Assembly (NCBI GenBank): GCA_949294555.1
Contig: CASFHP010000008.1
Span: 583-64,582 of the forward strand
From: an uncultured Eubacteriales bacterium
Lineage (GTDB): Bacteria > Bacillota > Clostridia > TANB77 > CAG-508
DNA: 64,000 nt
Direction: 5' to 3'
Positions 163-39,277 of this stretch are shown here, one piece after another (the stretch's first letter is position 1; every line of letters begins with the position of its first letter). The notes beneath the pieces were generated by a model that was given only the letters and a program-made list of their open reading frames with translations, was not told the DNA's origin and did no database searches. A program made the translations under genes and the position numbers.

Positions 163-218
163 ACAAGATAGTAAAATTGCATGTAAATTTGTAAAAATTT
201 TATAATATATTTCAGAAT

Positions 219-258
219 ACCCTCAACATGAAGAAAGTTTGTATGTCATGTTGAGGGT
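219..258. terminator. Hairpin between convergent genes, probable bidirectional terminator
   Basis: accctcaacatga (219-231) pairs with tcatgttgagggt (246-258). Confidence 0.6.
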
Positions 259-271
259 TATAAAAAATTAT

Positions 272-1045
272 TTAAAATGTCTCAAACAGAAACGTCCCCA
301 ATTGGACATCTTCCATAGCATACATACCAGGTTGTTGGTTAACAATAAATTCAGCAGCTTTTAAAGCACCTTCTGCAAAGACATTTCTAGAATAACTAGT
401 ATGTTTAATTTCAAAAGTCTCAAAATTACCAATAAATTGAACTGTATGTTCTCCAACAATGTTTCCACCTCTAATAGAAGACATACCAATTTCATTTTTA
501 TCTCGTTTTTCATGTTTGTCATGTCTGTTATATTCACAATGAAGCGTATTTCCCAAAGACTCATTAATACTGTCCGCCAACATTTGGGCAGTACCACTTG
601 GACTGTCAACTTTTCTATTGTGATGTGCTTCAATAATTTCAATATCTGTGTTTTTTAAAAGTGGTGCTAGCCAAGAAACGATTTTTTTCATAATCATAAT
701 GTCAAAAGACATGTTTGCAGATTTGAATATAGGAATTGTTTTACTTGCTTCTTCAATAATTTTTGTTTGTTCATCTGTAAATCCAGTTGTTGCAATAACC
801 ATTGGTATTTTATTTGTTTTTGCATAATCTAATATATTTAATGTTGCAACAGGAAGAGAAAAGTCAATAATAACATCTGGCTTCACAGTGATATTTTCTA
901 TTTCTGTAAAGATTGGGAATTTTGAGTCTGAATAGCTTACTTTGTCAAAACCACCAACCACTTGCATATTTTCATTTTCTGCTATCAAATCACATACAAC
1001 ATTTCCCATTTTTCCATTACAACCATTTACAAGTACGTTTAACAT
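272..1045 (-). CDS. dapB: 4-hydroxy-tetrahydrodipicolinate reductase
   Basis: GCNGKMG Rossmann motif, ATTG, EAHHNRKVDSPSGTA, RGGNIVGEH. Confidence 0.95.
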   Translation of the reverse strand: MLNVLVNGCNGKMGNVVCDLIAENENMQVVGGFDKVSYSDSKFPIFTEIENITVKPDVIIDFSLPVATLNILDYAKTNKIPMVIATTGFTDEQTKIIEEASKTIPIFKSANMSFDIMIMKKIVSWLAPLLKNTDIEIIEAHHNRKVDSPSGTAQMLADSINESLGNTLHCEYNRHDKHEKRDKNEIGMSSIRGGNIVGEHTVQFIGNFETFEIKHTSYSRNVFAEGALKAAEFIVNQQPGMYAMEDVQLGTFLFETF

Positions 1046-29369: not shown

Positions 29370-32019
29370 ATATAATCCAAGAGATTTTGAAGAAAAATTG
29401 TATCAAGAATGGGAGGAAAAAGGATATTTTAAACCAAGTATGGATAAAACCAAAGAAAGCTACTGTATTATGATGCCACCTCCAAATGTAACAGGAAAAT
29501 TACACATGGGACATGCATTAGATGGCACCATTCAAGATATTCTAATTCGTTTTAAGAGAATGCAAGGATATAATACTTTATGGCTTCCTGGAAGTGACCA
29601 TGCTTCTATTTCTACAGAAATGAAAGTTGTTGAAAAATTAAAAAATGAAGGTAAGACAAAACAAGAACTAGGAAGAGAAAAATTTTTAGAAGAAGCTTGG
29701 GAATGGACAAGAATTTATGGTGGAACCATTCAAGAGCAACAAAAGAAATTAGGATGTTCTTGTGACTGGGATAGAAGAAGATTTACATTAGATGAAGGGC
29801 TATCTGACGCTGTTTTAGAGCAATTTGTTGATTTATATAATAAAGGACTAATCTATAAAGGAAAAAGAATGATTAACTATTGTCCAAGTTGTAAAACCTC
29901 TATATCAGACGCAGAAGTAGAATATAAAGAAGAGGCCTCTCATTTATGGCATATCCGTTATCAAATAACAGGAGAAAAAGATAGATATATCATTGTTGCA
30001 ACTACAAGACCTGAAACTATGCTTGGAGATACAGCAGTTGCAGTTCATCCAGATGATGAAAGATATAAAGATTTAGTTGGAAAAACATGTATTTTGCCAA
30101 TTATGAATAAAGAAATTCCAATTATTGCAGATGACTTTGTTGATAAAGAATTTGGAACAGGTTGTGTTAAAATCACACCAGCACATGATATGAATGATTA
30201 TCAAGCAGGTTTAAAACATAACTTAGAGATTGTAGAAGTATTTGACGAAGATTACAAAATGGGAGATTTAGTTCCAGAATATAAAGGAATGGATTTATTA
30301 GAAGCTAGAAAAGCAATTGTCAAAAAGCTTGAAGAAATTGGAGCTTTAGTAAAAACAGAAGACTATACCCATAATGTAGCAAAATGTGAAAGATGTAAAA
30401 CAACCATAGAGCCTAAAATCTCTGAGCAATGGTTTGTTTCTATGAAGGATTTAGCAAAAAGAGCAGCAGACTCTGTAAGAAATAATGAAGCTAGATTTAT
30501 TCCTAAAAAATATGAAAAACAATATTTTAACTGGTTAGATAATATACAAGACTGGTGTATATCAAGACAATTATGGTGGGGACATCAAATACCAGCATAT
30601 TATTGTGAAGAATGTGGACATATTAATGTTGCAAAAACAGCACCTGAAAAATGTGAAAAATGTGGAAGCACAAAATTACATCAGGATGAAGATACATTAG
30701 ATACATGGTTTAGTTCTGCATTATGGCCATTTTCAACTTTAGGTTGGCCAAACACAGAAACAGAGGATTACAAAACATTCTATCCAACAAGTGTCTTAGT
30801 TACAGGATTTGATATTATTACTTTCTGGGTATCAAGAATGATGTCACAAGGGTTAGAATTTACTGGCCAAGCACCATTTAAAGATATTTTAATCCATGGA
30901 ATGGTACGTGATAGTCAAGGAAGAAAAATGTCTAAAACTTTAGGAAATGGTATAGACCCAATAGAAATTATTGATGAATATGGAGCAGATAGTTTGCGTT
31001 TTGCTGTTATATCAGGAACCACAATGGGAAATGATATTAGATATATGCCAGAGAAACTAGAGCAAGCATCAAATTTTGCCAATAAAATTTGGAATGCAAC
31101 GAGATTTATTAGAAATAACGAAGTGAAAGATGAAGATATCATTGATTTCCATACAAAGGTATATGATAAAGAAACGAAAAGATACAAAAATGATTTATTA
31201 AAATTAGAAGATAAATGGATTATTAACAAATTAGAAACCTTGATTACAGAAGTAACCAATAATATGGAAAATTACGATTTAGGAGTTGCACTTGATAAAG
31301 TATATAACTTTATTTGGAATGAATTCTGTGATTGGTATATTGAAATGGTAAAACCAAGATTGTATAGTAATGATTATGAAGAAAAAGTAAAGGTTTGCTA
31401 TGTTTTAGATTATGTATTTGGTATTTCAATGAAACTATTACATCCATTTATGCCATTTGTAACAACAGAAATTTATAGAAACTTAGTAAAATACAATGAC
31501 AAAGAGTTAATGGTGTCAAAATGGCCACACGCAAAAACACAAAATCAATTTAAAGACGAAGAAGATTTTGTTGAAAGATTAAAGTCAATAATAACAGAAA
31601 TCAGAAATACAAGAGCAAATATGAATGTACACCCAACTAAAAAGGCAGAATTGATTTTTGTAACTGAAAAATATGAAAAAGAAATAGAGGAAGCAAAAGA
31701 ATTCTTATTAAAATTAGGATTTGGAAGTAATGTTCTTATTCAAAAAGATAAGACAGGAATTAAAGATAATGCAATTAGCATTGTAGAAGATGGAATAGAA
31801 TTATATATGCCATTTGAAGGATTAGTAGATATGGAACAAGAAAGAAAAAGATTACAAGACGAAAAGAAAAGGCTAGAAGGAGAAGTAGCAAGATGTGAAA
31901 AAATGTTATCTAATCCAGGATTTATGAATAAAGCACCACAAAGTAAAATTGATGAAGAAAAAGCAAAATTAGAGAAATATAAAGATATGCTAGCAAAAGT
32001 AATGGAATCATTAAAATAA
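29359..32019 (+). CDS. valS: Valine--tRNA ligase
   Basis: PPPNVTGKLHMGHA, DWCISRQLWWGH, DTWFSSALWPF, KMSKT, C-terminal coiled coil. Confidence 0.98.
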   Translation: MNDKYNPRDFEEKLYQEWEEKGYFKPSMDKTKESYCIMMPPPNVTGKLHMGHALDGTIQDILIRFKRMQGYNTLWLPGSDHASISTEMKVVEKLKNEGKTKQELGREKFLEEAWEWTRIYGGTIQEQQKKLGCSCDWDRRRFTLDEGLSDAVLEQFVDLYNKGLIYKGKRMINYCPSCKTSISDAEVEYKEEASHLWHIRYQITGEKDRYIIVATTRPETMLGDTAVAVHPDDERYKDLVGKTCILPIMNKEIPIIADDFVDKEFGTGCVKITPAHDMNDYQAGLKHNLEIVEVFDEDYKMGDLVPEYKGMDLLEARKAIVKKLEEIGALVKTEDYTHNVAKCERCKTTIEPKISEQWFVSMKDLAKRAADSVRNNEARFIPKKYEKQYFNWLDNIQDWCISRQLWWGHQIPAYYCEECGHINVAKTAPEKCEKCGSTKLHQDEDTLDTWFSSALWPFSTLGWPNTETEDYKTFYPTSVLVTGFDIITFWVSRMMSQGLEFTGQAPFKDILIHGMVRDSQGRKMSKTLGNGIDPIEIIDEYGADSLRFAVISGTTMGNDIRYMPEKLEQASNFANKIWNATRFIRNNEVKDEDIIDFHTKVYDKETKRYKNDLLKLEDKWIINKLETLITEVTNNMENYDLGVALDKVYNFIWNEFCDWYIEMVKPRLYSNDYEEKVKVCYVLDYVFGISMKLLHPFMPFVTTEIYRNLVKYNDKELMVSKWPHAKTQNQFKDEEDFVERLKSIITEIRNTRANMNVHPTKKAELIFVTEKYEKEIEEAKEFLLKLGFGSNVLIQKDKTGIKDNAISIVEDGIELYMPFEGLVDMEQERKRLQDEKKRLEGEVARCEKMLSNPGFMNKAPQSKIDEEKAKLEKYKDMLAKVMESLK

Positions 32020-32024
32020 ATGTG

Positions 32025-32150
32025 AATGGGGACGAGCGATGATTTGGGGACGGAGCAAAAATCATCATTTCTATAAAGATTTTTTATAAAACTTTTTATA
32101 GAATAAATGATGATTTTTGCTCCGTCCCCAAATCATCTTCCGTCCCCATT
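32025..32150. repeat. REP-like doublet of family G between convergent genes
   Basis: 33-bp perfect IR 32038-32070/32105-32137 plus outer aatggggacg/cgtccccatt. Confidence 0.9.
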
Positions 32151-32411
32151 AATATCCATATCTTCTAAATTTTTAGAACGTGCATATGGTTTTGGCTCAT
32201 CTGTTATTCCTAATAGATAATCAATAGAAGTATCATAATAAAGTGATAAATTTATTAAAATCCTTGTAGGGATGTCATTTTCACCTGTTTCATATTTTGA
32301 ATAACCTGTTTGTGACATGTTTAAAATTGTCGCAATTTTTTTTTGTGTCAAATCATGGTCTTCTCGTAATGAACGAATTCGTGTGTAAACTTTAAAAAAT
32401 TTGTTATTCAT
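32133..32411 (-). CDS. XRE-family HTH transcriptional regulator
   Basis: IRSLREDHDLTQKKIATILNMSQTGYSKYETGENDIP...SIDYLLG. Confidence 0.9.
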   Translation of the reverse strand: MNNKFFKVYTRIRSLREDHDLTQKKIATILNMSQTGYSKYETGENDIPTRILINLSLYYDTSIDYLLGITDEPKPYARSKNLEDMDINGDGR

Positions 32412-32554: not shown

Positions 32555-32610
32555 TTGACTTTTAACCTAAATTAGGTTAAAATATAAATCGAATAACCTG
32601 AAACAGATTA
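32555..32610 (+). promoter_or_regulatory. sigma70 promoter with palindromic operator(s)
   Basis: TTGACT-17-TAAAAT; palindrome ttttaacctaa-a-ttaggttaaaa 32560-32582; second degenerate site taacctgaaacagatta 32594-32610. Confidence 0.7.
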
Positions 32611-32746
32611 AAATACAAAAGTGCGATACAAATAAAATAGCCATACATGTTTCAGGAACGAGGCTATTTTATGCATTATTCTTAACTATAAATATAGTGG
32701 GGGAGACAAACACAATAGAAAAAATAAGGAGGTGAAGGAGGAAGAT

Positions 32747-33385
32747 GTGAAAAGAGTTATATATCGTCGAGGAAAAAGAGCGACCAAAAAGAAAATAAAC
32801 AAGAAAAAACTATTTGGGCTAATCCTTCTTTTTGCAGTCTTTGTGATTATATGCATTGAAATGTATAGTAAAAAAGAAAGCAATGCACATGCAACTAGCG
32901 ACACTTCGGTTGAAATTACAAATGAAACTACGGACAATAACACAGTTTCTGAAGAAGAAAAAAATATTGTAGATGTGGATATCCCTGATACCGTAGGCGG
33001 TTATAATGTCTTAGGTCAATTGGTACTAGAAAAGATAGGTGTAACACAAAATATTTTGGATAGAACTGAAGATGATTCTTTAAAAGTTGGGGTAACAAAA
33101 TTTTATGGACCCAAGATTGATCAAGCTGGAAATTTTTGCATATGTGGTCACAATTACGCAGGTATCTTGAAAGATTTGAAAGAAATGAATGAAGGAGATG
33201 AATTTTATATCATCTCAAAAGATAAAAAAGAAAGAGTGGATTACAAAATTTATGATATGTATTCATGTGAGCCAACAGATTTATCTTGTTTAACGCAAAA
33301 CCAAGACGGAAAGAGAGAAGTAACTCTGATAACATGTGATCCTGGGGGATTAACGAGGCTAATATGCAAGGCAAGAGAGATGTAA
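32747..33385 (+). CDS. Sortase
   Basis: N-terminal TM, GNFCICGHNY (His), VTLITC (Cys), downstream Arg. Confidence 0.9.
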   Translation: MKRVIYRRGKRATKKKINKKKLFGLILLFAVFVIICIEMYSKKESNAHATSDTSVEITNETTDNNTVSEEEKNIVDVDIPDTVGGYNVLGQLVLEKIGVTQNILDRTEDDSLKVGVTKFYGPKIDQAGNFCICGHNYAGILKDLKEMNEGDEFYIISKDKKERVDYKIYDMYSCEPTDLSCLTQNQDGKREVTLITCDPGGLTRLICKAREM

Positions 33386-33450
33386 CGTTAAAAAATGTAT
33401 TGATAAAAGTACATAAGATTATAAAAAAATAAGAAAGGAAAGTGAAAAAA

Positions 33451-34131
33451 ATGAAAAAGAAAATATTAGGAATAGTAATAACATTAGTAATAATGATGGG
33501 AATGATGGTAAGCCAAGTAAATGCTGCCACAATAAGTGCAAGTAATACAGAGGTAAATAAAGGAGATGAATTGACAGTAACCGTTAATTTAGATAATCCA
33601 ACACAAGCAATCGATTTAGTTTTAACTTATGATGCAAATAGTTTTGAATATGTAAAAGGTTCAGTAACTTCAAGTATTGGAGACTTAACAGTAAATGACA
33701 CAGTAGCTGGAGAAGTAAGATTATCAGCTGCAAGTGCAACAAATTCAACAACATCTGTAACATATACATTTGTTGCAACAGAAAACACAGATGCAGCAGC
33801 ATTTAATGCTAGCGGATTAGTAACAGAAAGTGGAGAAGAATTTACAGTTGATTCTGTATCAGTTAGTGTTGTAGAAGCAGAAGAACCAACACAACCAGAA
33901 AATCCAGAACAACCAACAAATCCAGAACAACCTTCAACAGAAAATCCTGGAGAAACAACAAATAACGAACAAAATGGTAGTGAAACAAATACAGACGCTC
34001 CATTAGTAGATGAAAATGGAAATGTTATTACAAAATTACCACAAACAGGTGTAAATGTTTATACAGTAATTGCAGGAATTGCAGTAGTTGCAATCGCAAC
34101 AGTTTTCGTGGTTAGAAAAGTTAGAAAATAA
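33451..34131 (+). CDS. Cohesin-domain LPXTG cell-wall anchor protein
   Basis: Signal peptide; cohesin-like VNKGDELTVTVNL...LTYDANSFEYV; PEQP linker; LPQTG + TM + RKVRK. Confidence 0.8.
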   Translation: MKKKILGIVITLVIMMGMMVSQVNAATISASNTEVNKGDELTVTVNLDNPTQAIDLVLTYDANSFEYVKGSVTSSIGDLTVNDTVAGEVRLSAASATNSTTSVTYTFVATENTDAAAFNASGLVTESGEEFTVDSVSVSVVEAEEPTQPENPEQPTNPEQPSTENPGETTNNEQNGSETNTDAPLVDENGNVITKLPQTGVNVYTVIAGIAVVAIATVFVVRKVRK

Positions 34132-34144
34132 GGAGGAAAAGAAG

Positions 34145-37100
34145 TTGAATAAGAGATTAAAAATAGTATCATCATTAGCATTAGCTGGAATGCTAGTAAC
34201 AAGTAGTTTGGGTATGAACAAAGTATTCGCTGCAACAGCAGAAGATAATTATACAACAAATCCAGTAGCTGTATATAGAAATTTAGTAGAAGGAAAAACA
34301 GTTGTACCATTTGTATTAGTAAATAGAGATGATGTATTAACTGTAAAAGATGTTGTAGAAAGTGATATGTTCAGCGGAAAAGTAGAAACAATCAATGGAA
34401 CAGCAATTTCTTCACTAGACACTTTAGTAGGTACAGGAGATAAATTTACAACAACAGACGGAACAGAATATACAATTGTTGTATATGGAGATGTTGATGG
34501 AGATGGAAGAATTAATGCATTAGATGCTTTACAAGTAGAAAGAAGTAATGTAAATATGGTTACTTTAGATGATGTACAAAGAGAAGCAGCAGATGTAAAA
34601 AATGATGCTAGAGTAAATTCATTAGATTCTTTAGCAATTAAGAGATATGTTGTAGGTTTAAGTGAAAGTGTAATAGATACATTACCAGAAAAAGAAGAAG
34701 TAGTAGAAGATTCTAATTACACATTAAGTTTAAAAGATGCTAGCTATGTAAACAGCACAAATGTTGAAGGAGCTACATTAAAAATGGACTTGAAAGAAAC
34801 ATTAGATAAAGCTACAAATCTAAAACTTGTTGTATCTGATGGAGAAAATAAAGTAGAACAAAATGTAACCGTATCAGCACATACAGATTATATGGAAATC
34901 GCTTTATCATCTTTAGCAGGATTAAAAGATGGAACATTAACAGTTGATTTATATGATGGAGAAACCATTGTAGGAACTGTTCAAGTTGTAAAAAATACAG
35001 TAGTTCCAGATGCTACAAATGTAAATGCTAATCGTACAAGTACAAGAAATGCAACACTTTCTCTAGAAAAATGTGGAGCAAGTGATGTAACAAAAGTAAA
35101 ATATGTAGTTAAAGGAATGAATGATGCAACACCAGCATTAACAGAATTAACAAATTCTGTAGATGTTCAAAATGGAAAACTAACAGATGCTCAAATTGCT
35201 GACAATCTTCAAACAAATACAGCATATAAAGTATTCTATGTAGTAGAAAACCAATATGGTTCACAATCTGCAATTAAAGAAGCAGTTATTGCAAGTGATG
35301 CTGCAAATGTAGAAGCAGAAAAAGCATTACAAGAAGTTGTAGCACCAGATTTAACAGAAACTGCAGAAGCGAAATTTACTTGGTCAGAAACAGGAAACAC
35401 ATATGTTGCAACATTATACAAAGATGGTTCAGCAGTTAGTGAAAAAACTGTAACAGCAAGTGAAGTAGACTTCTCAGCAGAAATGAAAGCAAATGGAACA
35501 TATAAAGTTTCAGTTGTTGTAAAAGGTGCAGATGATGGTTCATCTACAAATTTTCCTGCTAAAGAATCAGCAGAAGTAACAGTAAGCACTTTAAAAGCAG
35601 TTGAAGATTTAAAATTTGAAAATAGAGAAAATGGAAAAGTTGTATTATCATGGACAAATCCAAATGGTAAAGATGACTTCAAAGCATATGACATCGACTT
35701 ATATACTGTTGATGCAGAAGGAAAAGAAACAAAAGTGCAAGATGTAACTTGTAATAAAGTAAATGCAAATAATGAACTTGTAAGCGAAGTTGAAGTATCA
35801 TTAAATACAAATACAATTTATGTTGCTAAAGTAAAACTTGAAGCAAATGATAATCAAGCAGGTGTATTAAGCACAAATTATGTTGCTTCAGAGCAATTCT
35901 ATAAAGTTGCAGCTCCAAATATGGATACAGCAACAAAAGGTTCAACAAGCGTTACATTCACAATTAATCCAATTAATATTGCTAATAAAGAAGTAACATA
36001 TAAAGTTGAAGTATATGATGTAAAAGTAAATAATGATGCAACAGAAGCAAGATATACATTAAATTCAACAAGAGATGTTACAGTAAGCAAAGATAACAAA
36101 ATTACAGTTGATGGTTTGACATCATTAAATACATATGCATTCAAACTAGTTGCCACAGTTGATGGAAACGAAGTTGAATCAGAATATAGTGATGAAATTA
36201 GAACATTACCAACAATTGAAAACTTAACAGTTGATACAGCAGTAGAAGCTGGAAAAGCAAATTCAGGAAAAATTGCTGTTGATGGTAATAACCTAGTAAT
36301 CAATGGAGAAGCATTTGATACAACAGAAATTACAGAATTAGCAACAGCTAAAACAGTTCTTGAGCATCTTGAAGTAGGAGATGTTGTAACAATTAATGAT
36401 AATGCTACAAATGTTACAGTGAACTTAGCTGGTGCAGCTTCAACAACTACTGTTGCAGAAAGAGATTTTGGTGATTTATCAAATGCAACTGTAACAATTG
36501 AAAACAACCAATACAACAAAATCATTAAAGGAACATTTAAAGCATTAACATTAAATGGTAATGGAGCTATTTATACAGTTAATGATGTAACAAGTGAAAA
36601 TCCTATTGTTGTTGCAGATGGTGTAGAAGTTGTAGGAGATAAAGCTTACACAGTTCAAGCTGGTGCAAATGTTATCATAAATGATGTAAAAGTTAGTGCA
36701 ACACAAGAAACTGCAATCAGTGCTTCTGGTAAAACATTAACAGTTACAGCAAATGAAAGTGCTAATAACTTAGTATTTGAAAACGCTTCAGACGAAGCAG
36801 CTACAATCGTATTTGATGGATTAGATAACAATACATCAGAACAAAAAGGAACAATCACCATTAAATCAAATGGTGGAAAAGTTACTGTAAAATCTGATAA
36901 AGTTAATGTAAGTGCAAATATGAATGTTGAAGTTAATAACGGAACAGTAGATATTACTGCACCATCATTAACAGGAGATAAAACAGTTACAGTTTCTGCT
37001 GATGAAGGAAAACAATCATCTGTTATCGCTCAAACAGAAACATCTGCTCCAGACGCAGTTAAAGCTAAAGGAACAGTTGAATTAAAAGCATATACAGATG

Positions 37101-37291
37101 ACCAAATTAAAGAAGTATTTGGCGTTACAGACCAAGATGAAATTATTGCAATTAGCGAATATATTGATTCTTTCGGTTTAAACGGAAAAGGTGCTACAAT
37201 CACATTTACTACAACTGATGAAGGTAAAGAAGCTGTTATCATCACAGTGAATGGTAATGTTGCAGATGTAGACATCAGTAATATTAAATAA
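34145..37291 (+). CDS. Large secreted surface protein with type I dockerin and Fn3/Ig-like repeats
   Basis: RBS aaggagg + TTG, signal peptide; duplicated EF-hand YGDVDGDGRINALDAL / ADVKNDARVNSLDSLAIKRY; Fn3-like LSWTNP...YxxKV units. Confidence 0.8.
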   Translation: MNKRLKIVSSLALAGMLVTSSLGMNKVFAATAEDNYTTNPVAVYRNLVEGKTVVPFVLVNRDDVLTVKDVVESDMFSGKVETINGTAISSLDTLVGTGDKFTTTDGTEYTIVVYGDVDGDGRINALDALQVERSNVNMVTLDDVQREAADVKNDARVNSLDSLAIKRYVVGLSESVIDTLPEKEEVVEDSNYTLSLKDASYVNSTNVEGATLKMDLKETLDKATNLKLVVSDGENKVEQNVTVSAHTDYMEIALSSLAGLKDGTLTVDLYDGETIVGTVQVVKNTVVPDATNVNANRTSTRNATLSLEKCGASDVTKVKYVVKGMNDATPALTELTNSVDVQNGKLTDAQIADNLQTNTAYKVFYVVENQYGSQSAIKEAVIASDAANVEAEKALQEVVAPDLTETAEAKFTWSETGNTYVATLYKDGSAVSEKTVTASEVDFSAEMKANGTYKVSVVVKGADDGSSTNFPAKESAEVTVSTLKAVEDLKFENRENGKVVLSWTNPNGKDDFKAYDIDLYTVDAEGKETKVQDVTCNKVNANNELVSEVEVSLNTNTIYVAKVKLEANDNQAGVLSTNYVASEQFYKVAAPNMDTATKGSTSVTFTINPINIANKEVTYKVEVYDVKVNNDATEARYTLNSTRDVTVSKDNKITVDGLTSLNTYAFKLVATVDGNEVESEYSDEIRTLPTIENLTVDTAVEAGKANSGKIAVDGNNLVINGEAFDTTEITELATAKTVLEHLEVGDVVTINDNATNVTVNLAGAASTTTVAERDFGDLSNATVTIENNQYNKIIKGTFKALTLNGNGAIYTVNDVTSENPIVVADGVEVVGDKAYTVQAGANVIINDVKVSATQETAISASGKTLTVTANESANNLVFENASDEAATIVFDGLDNNTSEQKGTITIKSNGGKVTVKSDKVNVSANMNVEVNNGTVDITAPSLTGDKTVTVSADEGKQSSVIAQTETSAPDAVKAKGTVELKAYTDDQIKEVFGVTDQDEIIAISEYIDSFGLNGKGATITFTTTDEGKEAVIITVNGNVADVDISNIK

Positions 37292-37341
37292 GGTCTCCAC
37301 CTAAAAATTCATATAAATTTGAGTGCCTATAAGGTACAAAG

Positions 37342-37379
37342 ATAATAGAAGATATCATAAGATATCTTCTATTATTTTT
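37342..37379 (+). terminator. Rho-independent terminator
   Basis: ataatagaagatatc-ataa-gatatcttctattat followed by a T run. Confidence 0.8.
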
Positions 37380-37532
37380 GTACATAATTGGAAAGTCATA
37401 CTGATTAAAATGTCATAAGCAAAGAAAATATTAAAAAGGCCCGCTATTGTTCTAACATCTTTTCAGCAAAATAGTTACAATAAATTAAATAAGTATGTTA
37501 TAATAAAGTCGAATATATAAAAGAGGTGAGAA

Positions 37533-37592: not shown

Positions 37593-38264
37593 ATGCAAAA
37601 AATTCTAATTGTTGAAGATGATAAAAAATTAAGACAAGAATTAGAAACGTTTTTAAATAAAAATGGATTTCTAGCAAAAGGACTAGAAAAATTTGATAAT
37701 ACCATTTGCGACATCATAGATGAAAAAGCAGATTTGGTATTATTAGATATCAACTTGCCATATATGGATGGAGAATTTGTATGTAAAGAAGTAAGAAAAC
37801 TATCTAATGTACCAATTATTATGGTAACAAGTAGAGATAATGAAATAGATGAATTAATGAGTTTAAATTATGGGGCAGACCAATATGTTACAAAGCCATA
37901 TAATTTACAAATATTACTTGCCAAAATAACAGGATTACTAAAAAGAAACCAAAATTCAGGAAGAAATCCAGAAAAGATTGACTGTAATGGATTTGTCTTA
38001 AACATAGCAGAAAGAGTTATAGAAAAAGAGAATCAAAAGATAGACTTAACGAAAAATGAATATAGTATTTTATATTATTTAAGTAAACATAAAGAAAAAG
38101 TAGTATCAAGAGATGAGATTATGGACTATTTATGGGAAAGTGAAGAATTTATTGACGACAATACACTAAATGTAAATATAAAAAGATTAAGAACAAAGTT
38201 AGAAGAATTAGGATTAAAAGATAGAATAGAAACTAAAAGAGGGCAGGGGTATATATTAAAATGA
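37593..38264 (+). CDS. OmpR-family response regulator (BceR/GraR-like)
   Basis: ILIVEDD, LLDINLP, KPY, DDNTLNVNIKRLR, TKRGQGY. Confidence 0.92.
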   Translation: MQKILIVEDDKKLRQELETFLNKNGFLAKGLEKFDNTICDIIDEKADLVLLDINLPYMDGEFVCKEVRKLSNVPIIMVTSRDNEIDELMSLNYGADQYVTKPYNLQILLAKITGLLKRNQNSGRNPEKIDCNGFVLNIAERVIEKENQKIDLTKNEYSILYYLSKHKEKVVSRDEIMDYLWESEEFIDDNTLNVNIKRLRTKLEELGLKDRIETKRGQGYILK

Positions 38265-39277
38265 AATTTAAGGATTTTATAAAAGATAAAGTCATATTAA
38301 TTGTAACTATCATATTGGCATTAATCAGCATAGAAATATTATTGTTGGCATATCCTATTGGAATAGTTGTAAAAATATATATTACAGCTATTATTGTTAT
38401 GGTTGTAGCTATTTCGCTATTATTAGAATATAAAAGAAAACAACATTTTTATAATCAATTAAAAGCGAATATGGACGAGTTAAAAGAAAAGTATCTAATT
38501 TCTGAAATTATCAAAACACCTAATTTTATAGAAGGCAAAATTTTAAAAGAAGTTATACAAGATACAGGAAAATCTATGCTAGAAAATGTAAATTACTATA
38601 AAAATATTCAAGAAGAGTATAAAGAATATATAGAACTATGGATTCATGAAGTAAAAATACCAATTGCAGCAAGTAAAATGATTATTGAAAACCATAAAAA
38701 TGAAATAACAAAAAGTATAGATGAAGAATTAGATAAAGTAGAAAACTATACAGAACAAGCATTGTATTATGCAAGAAGTAATGCAGTCGAAAAAGATTAT
38801 ATTATTACCAAAACCAACTTAAAAGAAATTGTAAATGGAGCCATATTAAAAAATAAAAGTACATTATTAAATGAAAGAGTTGTCTTAGAATTAAAAGATT
38901 TAGAGCAAGAAGTTTATACAGATAGTAAATGGGCAACATTTATTGTTAACCAAATTATACAAAATGCGATTAAGTATTCAAAAGAAGAGAATAAAAGAAT
39001 AGAAATATTTGCAAAATCAAAAAATGATAAAGTCATTTTATATATAAAAGATAATGGAATCGGTATCAAACAAGGTGAGATCACAAGAGTATTTGAAAGA
39101 GGATTTACAGGAGAAAATGGAAGGAGAATAGGACAAAAATCAACAGGGATTGGTTTATATTTGTGCAAGAAATTATGTGATAAATTACGCCTTGGTATAG
39201 AATTAAATTCTAAAAAGGATGAAGGAACAGAAGTAAGAATTATATTTCCTAAAAATAGTTATACGAATTTGAAGTAG
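38261..39277 (+). CDS. Intramembrane-sensing histidine kinase (BceS-like)
   Basis: Two N-terminal TMs, WIHEVKIP, NAIKYS, DNGIGI, GFTGENG, STGIGLYL. Confidence 0.92.
   Translation: MKFKDFIKDKVILIVTIILALISIEILLLAYPIGIVVKIYITAIIVMVVAISLLLEYKRKQHFYNQLKANMDELKEKYLISEIIKTPNFIEGKILKEVIQDTGKSMLENVNYYKNIQEEYKEYIELWIHEVKIPIAASKMIIENHKNEITKSIDEELDKVENYTEQALYYARSNAVEKDYIITKTNLKEIVNGAILKNKSTLLNERVVLELKDLEQEVYTDSKWATFIVNQIIQNAIKYSKEENKRIEIFAKSKNDKVILYIKDNGIGIKQGEITRVFERGFTGENGRRIGQKSTGIGLYLCKKLCDKLRLGIELNSKKDEGTEVRIIFPKNSYTNLK

Follow-up and report, generated by a model that had tools for sequence, protein, structure and literature searches.

A likely surface-display operon encoding a sortase, a cohesin anchor and a dockerin-bearing stalk protein in an uncultured gut Clostridia bacterium

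Within a 64,000-nucleotide (nt) contig stretch from an uncultured gut Clostridia bacterium (hereafter, the window), positions 32747-37291 are filled by three co-directional open reading frames (ORFs) on the + strand that encode, in this order, a sortase, a small secreted protein combining a cohesin with a sortase signal (the anchoring protein), and a large secreted protein with a dockerin close to its N-terminus (the cargo). We consider it likely that this cassette is a dedicated surface-display operon. The host genome comprises 1.9 Mb in 68 contigs, and the G+C content of the window is low (~0.24-0.34). An earlier note made from the DNA alone had pointed to these three consecutive genes; all three ORFs are present and, with start codons chosen by ribosome-binding sites, their starts agree with it (Table 1).

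Under the proposed mechanism, the membrane-bound sortase would cleave the LPQTG motif of the small secreted protein and link it covalently to peptidoglycan, and a linker of ~50 residues rich in Pro, Glu and Asn would take the single cohesin across the wall. The separately secreted 1048-amino acid (aa) cargo would then bind the cohesin in a calcium-dependent manner via its N-proximal X-dockerin (a beta X module followed by the dockerin; hereafter, X-Doc). Because it would be docked through this N-proximal unit, the cargo would be held by its N-terminal end, with five immunoglobulin (Ig)/Fn3 modules forming a stalk and the ~360-residue C-terminal module forming the distal working tip, most likely a binding module of the adhesin type. 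Finally, a divergently encoded XRE protein probably represses the operon at conserved operators. The scheme builds on folds, motifs, synteny and co-occurrence.

Domain organization of the three proteins

In its predicted model, the anchoring protein adopts a cohesin fold, and it ends in a sortase signal. It has the same length as its nearest homologs (226 aa) and a signal peptide, and the cohesin fold occupies residues 28-144 (counted from the GTG at 33442, upstream of the start) of an AlphaFold model in which the confidence measure pLDDT is 94-98 over residues 31-140 and the signal peptide, linker and tail are disordered. The first nine Foldseek matches are all cohesins, headed by that of Clostridium perfringens GH84C (2w1n, E 2.3e-8), and 2jh2_A attains a TM score of 0.72 normalised to the target; a CLIPPER domain follows at rank 10 and streptococcal adhesin domains at ranks 17, 37, 41 and 44, and ScaE is absent among the 50 fold matches listed. 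A single-sequence search of the PDB chains yields only E 0.044, to the C. perfringens NagJ cohesin, and a profile of 44 homologs reaches the C. perfringens cohesins (2w1n_A, E 1.8e-7) and one of Acetivibrio cellulolyticus (1.5e-5). Precomputed Pfam Cohesin matches are available for 22 of 64 homologs. The sorting signal passes both models (PF00746, 21 bits against 20; TIGR01167, 18.5 against 15.9), and four residues of LPQTG (L, P, Q and G) do not vary across 44 aligned homologs; one distant ortholog has IPQAG instead. The earlier description of a secreted cohesin-like protein with a Pro-rich linker and LPQTG holds in the model and in the sorting-signal searches, with the linker rich in Glu and Asn as well as Pro.

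The first gene was also correctly recognized in the earlier note: the product passes the Pfam Sortase model (PF04203, 65 bits against a cut-off of 26.6) and TIGR01076 (44.4 against 39.35), and its His (ICGHNY), Cys (TLITC) and Arg (TRLICKA) motifs align with those of the best solved relative, 4d70_A (E 3.1e-8). None of the NCBIfam class models reaches its cut-off (class C, 58.2 against 160; SrtD, 50.4 against 140; class E, 39 against 160; class D, 38.5 against 165). The genome contains 10 sortase matches, on ten contigs and in three similarity groups, and the copy in the cassette clusters by BLASTP with those on contigs C5, C21, C32 and C6. Several of the genome's sortases adjoin proteins with LPxTG-like tails (on C6, C14, C3 and C44), and a simple pattern search of the genome returned 10 candidates for C-terminal sorting signals, of which 8 were judged plausible.

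The N-terminal part of the cargo is readily identified. Dockerin_1 (PF00404) scores 44.8 bits against 22.9 and fn3 28.7 against 25 in Pfam, and the two calcium-loop/helix repeats of the dockerin, which is type-I-like, match both the family model and the fold. The full model (mean pLDDT 86.2) has a beaded-stalk architecture, in which the duplicated N-proximal dockerin and the Fn3/Ig-like repeats noted earlier appear as a two-loop dockerin and about five Ig/Fn3 modules. The DNA repeats in the cargo gene are weak ones only, and therefore recently duplicated modules appear to be absent. Searches of Pfam, NCBIfam and PHROGs found no SLH, LPXTG or catalytic family in the cargo, in line with the earlier view that it is not a glycosidase.

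The remaining part, residues 691-1048, consists in the model of a small alpha/beta part, a beta-rich part with many short strands (772-962) and a helical-plus-strand end. Strands of 3-7 residues joined by short turns run across ~190 residues of this C-terminal region, so that residues ~772-962 could be read as a divergent beta-solenoid and the cargo as an enzyme, namely a glycan depolymerase or lyase carried on a stalk. Such a domain might have been overlooked given that fold searches with the whole cargo model return Fn3 chains and dockerins only, so that the C-terminal module is barely sampled. Nevertheless, these ~360 residues match no Pfam family (best E 0.66), no Pfam family is matched by more than 4 of the 19 orthologous C-terminal parts, a profile of the module reaches at best E 0.79 among the PDB sequences, PHROGs return nothing for the cargo, and the Atlas scores of the module (at most 0.76; at most 0.78 overall) are leads only. 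An enzymatic cargo thus appears quite unlikely.

A large, secreted, non-enzymatic protein, parts of whose gene are covered by contigs from RNA libraries of four studies, could alternatively form an S-layer-like lattice or coat tethered through the cohesin, as the earlier note had suggested beside an adhesive role. Neither "abundant" nor "S-layer-like", as the note had it, is borne out by any evidence, and we regard a coat as very unlikely: an SLH module is missing from the cargo but present in another protein of the same genome, the model is a beaded stalk rather than a compact lattice unit, and presence in only 6 of 40 relatives would be odd for the main wall coat.

An exhaustive profile search of 1.84 billion proteins detected the C-terminal module in ~105 representatives (50% identity level); each is either a fragment or a protein of ~1000-1200 aa that carries the module at its C-terminus. 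According to a family-specific profile, 53 of the 65 representatives of at least 900 aa have the dockerin at about residues 82-190, and the X module was found in 35 of these 65. Among the 12 without an N-proximal dockerin, P0227 and P0259 carry ChW repeats at the N-terminus, in the normal position of X-Doc, an apparent swap of the N-terminal module (Pfam gives only the name "Clostridial hydrophobic W" for these repeats, which we take to be wall-binding); P0282 is a spurious match; and in the remaining nine neither a dockerin nor an anchor module is found, and most of these start inside the first Ig region as if N-terminally cut. X-Doc is the best-conserved part of the cargo, with, for example, 78% identity in locus L031 compared with 66% for the C-terminal part. 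None of the sources searched names a member of this family. The cargo is a lineage-restricted, fast-diverging stalk protein with a distal module of no known family.

Genomic linkage, docking and the other cohesins and dockerins

The linkage of the genes was assessed in 21 loci, all from metagenome-assembled genomes of uncultured Clostridia, that were retrieved by a cohesin-profile search of species-representative genomes. The cohesin gene is followed by the cargo gene in 20 of these loci, the exception being cut by the contig end, and the sortase gene lies upstream in 19, which bears out the synteny in relatives that the earlier note had put forward as a check. In a previous set of seven loci around full-length cargo genes of relatives, with which at least 4 of the 21 share contigs, the trio is complete in five; of the other two, one has no sortase and the other runs into a contig end. 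Identity to the window proteins is 70-96% for the XRE protein, 40-92% for the sortase, 34-99% for the cohesin and 29-69% for the cargo; on these sequence comparisons, the proteins predicted to be exposed diverge fastest.

The two putative partners also co-occur. Full-length cargo is present in 6 of 40 relatives, and the orthologous cohesin (E <= 1.9e-42) is found in the same 6 and in 0 of the other 34; dockerins of any kind are more widespread, being found in 32 of the 40 relatives and, within the genus, in 23 of 24 genomes. The flanks of the cassette vary, given that just 3 of the 21 loci have the gene for valyl-tRNA synthetase (ValRS) on the upstream side, and the cassette seems to be located at differing sites and to be patchy, resembling an accessory island (flanks of L029-L049). 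No mobility genes were seen around the cassette loci. One genome placed in another family of the same order carries the cassette with a 55%-identical cargo (G027:C42, L024/L034). The downstream two-component system (37593-39277) was rejected as a part of the cassette, with a match in 0 of the 21 loci; in the set of seven, only L028 has a weak match to a response regulator and kinase (32-37% identity) beside the cargo gene.

Docking was addressed by complex prediction with residues 27-150 of the anchoring protein, residues 30-200 of the cargo and two calcium ions. The score was 0.38 (0.46, 0.38 and 0.28 in the individual runs), the best of three controls reached 0.01, the partners were modeled with pLDDT of at least 84, and no less than 7% of contacts were common to the runs. 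In calibration, 116 of 157 solved complexes reached the mark, as did 2 of 215 mismatched pairs; both of the mismatches but only 18 of the 157 did so with scores of 0.60 or less. The multimer prediction that the earlier note called for thus separates the pair from the controls and lends weak support to the binding of the cargo dockerin by the cohesin. A pass may reflect likeness rather than binding because cohesin-dockerin complexes have already been solved.

The weakness of this prediction is one of several observations that weigh against a dedicated display operon. Another is the marginal score of the anchoring protein with Pfam Cohesin (PF00963), which hmmscan does not list at E <= 0.1 and which reaches 24.3 bits against 24.1 in a six-frame scan of the genome. 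The small protein could, then, be an Ig-like wall protein with a cohesin fold that binds no dockerin, the three genes being mere neighbors; indeed, cohesin-like folds occur in adhesins without dockerin binding, and the CLIPPER and streptococcal adhesin domains among the fold matches belong here. However, true cohesins occupy the top nine structural ranks, the family profile identifies cohesins with high significance, the gene is strictly linked to and co-occurs with that of a dockerin protein, and the complex score, for what it adds, exceeds that of every control. We consider this possibility highly improbable.

With respect to the sortase, L036 contains the cohesin and the cargo without it, the match is split over two frames in L031:4293-4944, L032:4294-4945 and L042:4252-4918, and the genome has nine sortase matches besides the cassette copy, so that a dedicated sortase may be dispensable. 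The split is at the identical place in L031 and L032, and a frameshift, a pseudogene or an assembly error could be the cause. Regarding the tip, the C-terminal module is a putative binding module only.

Finally, the partners could differ or overlap: the genome encodes, in total, 5 dockerin ORFs (4 besides the cargo) and 6 cohesin matches (5 besides the anchoring protein), and the dockerin protein on contig C21 is 35% identical to the cargo over residues 58-174. The anchored cohesin might thus be a general socket for several or all dockerin proteins, including GH73-type wall hydrolases, the SLH/GDSL protein and the adaptor (Table 1), with the neighboring cargo being one client among them or docking mainly elsewhere. 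A precedent is available in Ruminococcus bromii, where, according to the excerpted part of the report, Sca2 binds dockerins of unrelated proteins (PMC4611034). By contrast, the orthologous cohesin follows the cargo into the same few relatives rather than the far more widespread dockerins as such, and the pair is adjacent in nearly all loci. The general socket is compatible with the display operon; in itself it appears unlikely, with a chance that is not negligible.

Two of the other loci deserve description. On contig C21 (54679-60264, L051), a paralogous cassette encodes an LPKTG cohesin, a sortase, the 758-aa X-dockerin protein and a cohesin match with cadherin-like modules; it therefore repeats the design of the window cassette, the cargo in this instance being a probable wall hydrolase. 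The likeness of the N-terminal part of this protein to the GH73-type domain of the C29 protein was judged by eye only, the structure search having covered the C29 protein. On contig C28 (4273-10216, L050), the gene for the 1225-aa dockerin protein is followed by three cohesin genes and then by those for a response regulator and a histidine kinase, the same arrangement as that downstream of the window cassette.

None of the 5 dockerin ORFs in the genome carries a plant-cell-wall glycosidase family, and no ORF in the genome has more than one cohesin, so that the multi-cohesin scaffoldin that marks a cellulosome is absent. On this annotation, the system is non-cellulosomal, as the earlier note had it. 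The note had also allowed for further dockerin proteins encoded elsewhere, and four are found; its description of the system as minimal does not hold, since the genome has three or more additional cohesin/dockerin loci. With four more dockerins, five more cohesin matches and ten sortases, the window cassette is therefore best seen as one cassette of a wider non-cellulosomal display system.

Upstream region, other features and expression

The features of the locus, together with the other cohesin and dockerin proteins of the genome, are collected in Table 1.

Table 1. Features of the cassette and its surroundings in the window, and other cohesin and dockerin proteins of the same genome
Feature	Position or contig	Strand	Basis or remark
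Divergent XRE-type helix-turn-helix gene, 92 aa	32133..32411	-	ORF; homolog upstream in 18 of 21 related loci
Promoter and operator block	32555..32610	+	Best promoter match in region; near-invariant in 15 aligned loci
Palindrome TTAACCTAAATTAGGTTAA	32562-32580	+	Between the -35 and -10 hexamers
Second operator-like site TAACCTGAAACAGATTA	32594-32610	+	Just downstream of the palindrome
Membrane-anchored sortase, 212 aa	32747..33385	+	GTG start behind AAGGAGG; Pfam Sortase
Anchoring protein, 226 aa	33451..34131	+	ATG start behind GAAAGGAAAG
Cohesin domain of anchoring protein	33523-33873	+	Predicted model, fold search, profile
Pro/Glu/Asn-rich linker of anchoring protein	33874-34035	+	
LPQTG of anchoring protein	34036-34050	+	Followed by hydrophobic stretch and basic tail
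Cargo, 1048 aa	34145..37291	+	TTG start behind TAAGGAGG, which overlaps the stop codon of the upstream gene
Cargo signal peptide	34145-34231, residues 1-29	+	Read from sequence; pLDDT low over residues 1-36
Cargo beta X module, without family	34253-34483, residues 40-113	+	Model; Pfam
Cargo three-helix dockerin	34484-34669, residues 114-175	+	Pfam, model, fold searches
Cargo linker	Residues 185-188	+	Model
Cargo Ig/Fn3 modules, about five	34712-36214, residues ~190-690	+	Model, fold searches
Cargo C-terminal module, no known family	36215-37288, residues 691-1048	+	Model
Likely operon terminator, AT-rich 19-bp hairpin ending in T-run	37338..37380	+	Read from sequence
SLH/Flg_new/GDSL dockerin protein, 1225 aa	C28		Dockerin at end
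Cohesin-Big_2-dockerin adaptor, 321 aa	C28		
SH3_3 and Big_2 dockerin protein, 758 aa	C21		Ends in X-dockerin
SH3_3 dockerin protein, 516 aa	C29		N-terminal part matches GH73-type autolysins, 6u0o_B E 4.1e-20
Membrane-anchored cohesin, 171 aa	C28		
LPNTG cohesin, 239 aa	C28		
LPKTG cohesin beside sortase, 353 aa	C21		
Cohesin match with cadherin-like modules and membrane anchor, 422 aa	C21		Under cut-off, 21 bits

The promoter (TTGACT-17-TAAAAT) matches at 10 of 12 positions. The promoter-operator block is far better kept than the coding sequence, with proteins in the aligned loci down to ~35% identity, and the -35 block motif CTATTGACTT of the window recurs in 18 of the 21 loci. The exact palindrome occurs in none of the other loci; variants with 1-4 base differences are conserved in the aligned ones, and in L031, L043 and L044 the second operator-like site is a near-perfect copy of the first. 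From the position of its gene and the conserved operator, the XRE protein is probably a repressor of the cassette acting at these sites.

The leader (32598-32672) contains an inverted repeat, CCTGAAACA ... TGTTTCAGG, and a hairpin followed by TTTTAT, in the main clade only; the distant loci L045, L046, L048 and L049 have a short leader instead. An RNA switch in this leader is not supported: the fold of the single sequence does not outperform shuffles (z -1.31), a consensus over 12 leaders folds only weakly (-4.34 kcal/mol), and the pairing CUGAAACA/UGUUUCAG, invariant in 10 of the 12, shows no convincing covariation. Half-sites at the DNA level are an equal reading; the leader repeat may be an RNA attenuator or a third DNA half-site.

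Rfam returned only hairpin-type noise (miRNA models well below their gathering scores), at 32016-32159 and at 37333-37384. The former is a near-perfect hairpin of ~140 nt between the convergent valS and XRE genes, to both strands of which several miRNA models match, and is probably a bidirectional terminator; the latter coincides with the hairpin that we consider the likely operon terminator and that a G+C-biased terminator scan did not list.

At least half of the sampled words were present in nine runs from six studies (a possible source study excluded), four of these studies being labelled chicken gut metagenome. Four RNA-library runs from four studies yielded 12, 13, 8 and 14 contigs at >= 90% likeness, some of which, 165-445 nt long and with 0-18 differences, fall on the cohesin and cargo genes. 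These contigs indicate presence only, and are no more than a hint of expression, which counts among the points against the display reading, because DNA can occur in such libraries.

Relation to known systems and implications

The literature searched (titles and the beginnings of abstracts) contains no description of this cassette or of the cargo family. Sortase-anchored single-cohesin anchors are already known, namely ScaE (with CttA), Sca2 and cSca5. According to the excerpted parts of the respective reports, ScaE of Ruminococcus flavefaciens and R. champanellensis is a sortase-anchored cohesin (PMC4611034, PMC13463774), Sca2 of the R. bromii amylosome, a cohesin with a sortase signal that is compared there with R. 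flavefaciens ScaE, accepts non-amylase dockerins as well (PMC4611034), and cSca5 of the Limousia pullorum mucinolysome is a small, very highly expressed LPxTG anchor with an N-terminal cohesin (PMC12997984). Excerpts of further studies mention dockerins on lysozyme-like and other non-fibrolytic proteins in rumen metagenomes (PMC6487960) and a survey category of single-cohesin proteins of unknown function (PMC11557425).

Similarly to the cassette anchor, ScaE combines a single cohesin, a linker and an LPXTG signal, and its clients carry a dyad of an X module and a dockerin. CttA, encoded beside scaE, is a non-enzymatic binding protein. ScaE, however, serves a cellulosome, whereas the cassette has an N-proximal dockerin, a sortase within the operon and no dockerin on a plant-cell-wall enzyme; to our knowledge, the client dockerins of the ScaE cellulosome cluster are C-terminal and the cluster contains no sortase gene. 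Sca2 and cSca5, like the cassette anchor, are cohesin proteins of gut Firmicutes that carry a sortase signal at the C-terminus and hold dockerin proteins at the wall, and the clients of Sca2 include non-enzymes. They serve many enzymes and scaffoldins encoded elsewhere, whereas the cassette anchor shares its three-gene operon with a single cargo and a sortase of its own. What differs here, then, is the sortase in the operon, the N-proximal dockerin with the reversed polarity that it implies, and the distal module without a known family.

By profile and by fold, the closest relatives of the anchor cohesin are the non-cellulosomal cohesins of C. perfringens (GH84C/NagJ, GH33; 2w1n, 2jh2, 2vo8, 2ozn). 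These form part of secreted glycosidases and recognize the FIVAR-dockerin modules of other enzymes; unlike the cassette anchor, they are not stand-alone sockets anchored by sortase. In the LPXTG-anchored fibrillar adhesins of Gram-positive bacteria, a stalk of Ig/Fn3-like repeats and a binding tip are displayed via sortase. The cargo resembles them in its beaded stalk and terminal module, but these adhesins are attached covalently via their own C-terminus and expose an N-terminal tip, whereas the cargo would be mounted non-covalently via its N-proximal dockerin, with a free C-terminus and thus with the reverse polarity.

A broader reading can be put forward, although it is rather doubtful. The cargo might be a non-covalently mounted fibrillar adhesin of reverse polarity, in which an N-proximal dockerin replaces an LPXTG signal of its own and thus leaves the C-terminus free for a lineage-specific distal tip with a fold not yet described. 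The cassette might move as an island and diversify rapidly under host, phage or substrate pressure, its operator remaining invariant, and cohesin-dockerin pairs might serve across the genus as an exchangeable mounting for adhesins and wall hydrolases.

The dedicated display operon that we consider likely adds a compact case to the view of cohesin-dockerin pairs as a general surface-mounting device in gut Firmicutes, beyond polysaccharide breakdown. The small and conserved pair would be easy to test and could be used as an orthogonal plug-and-socket for protein display, and the distal module is a candidate attachment determinant of an uncultured animal-gut lineage.

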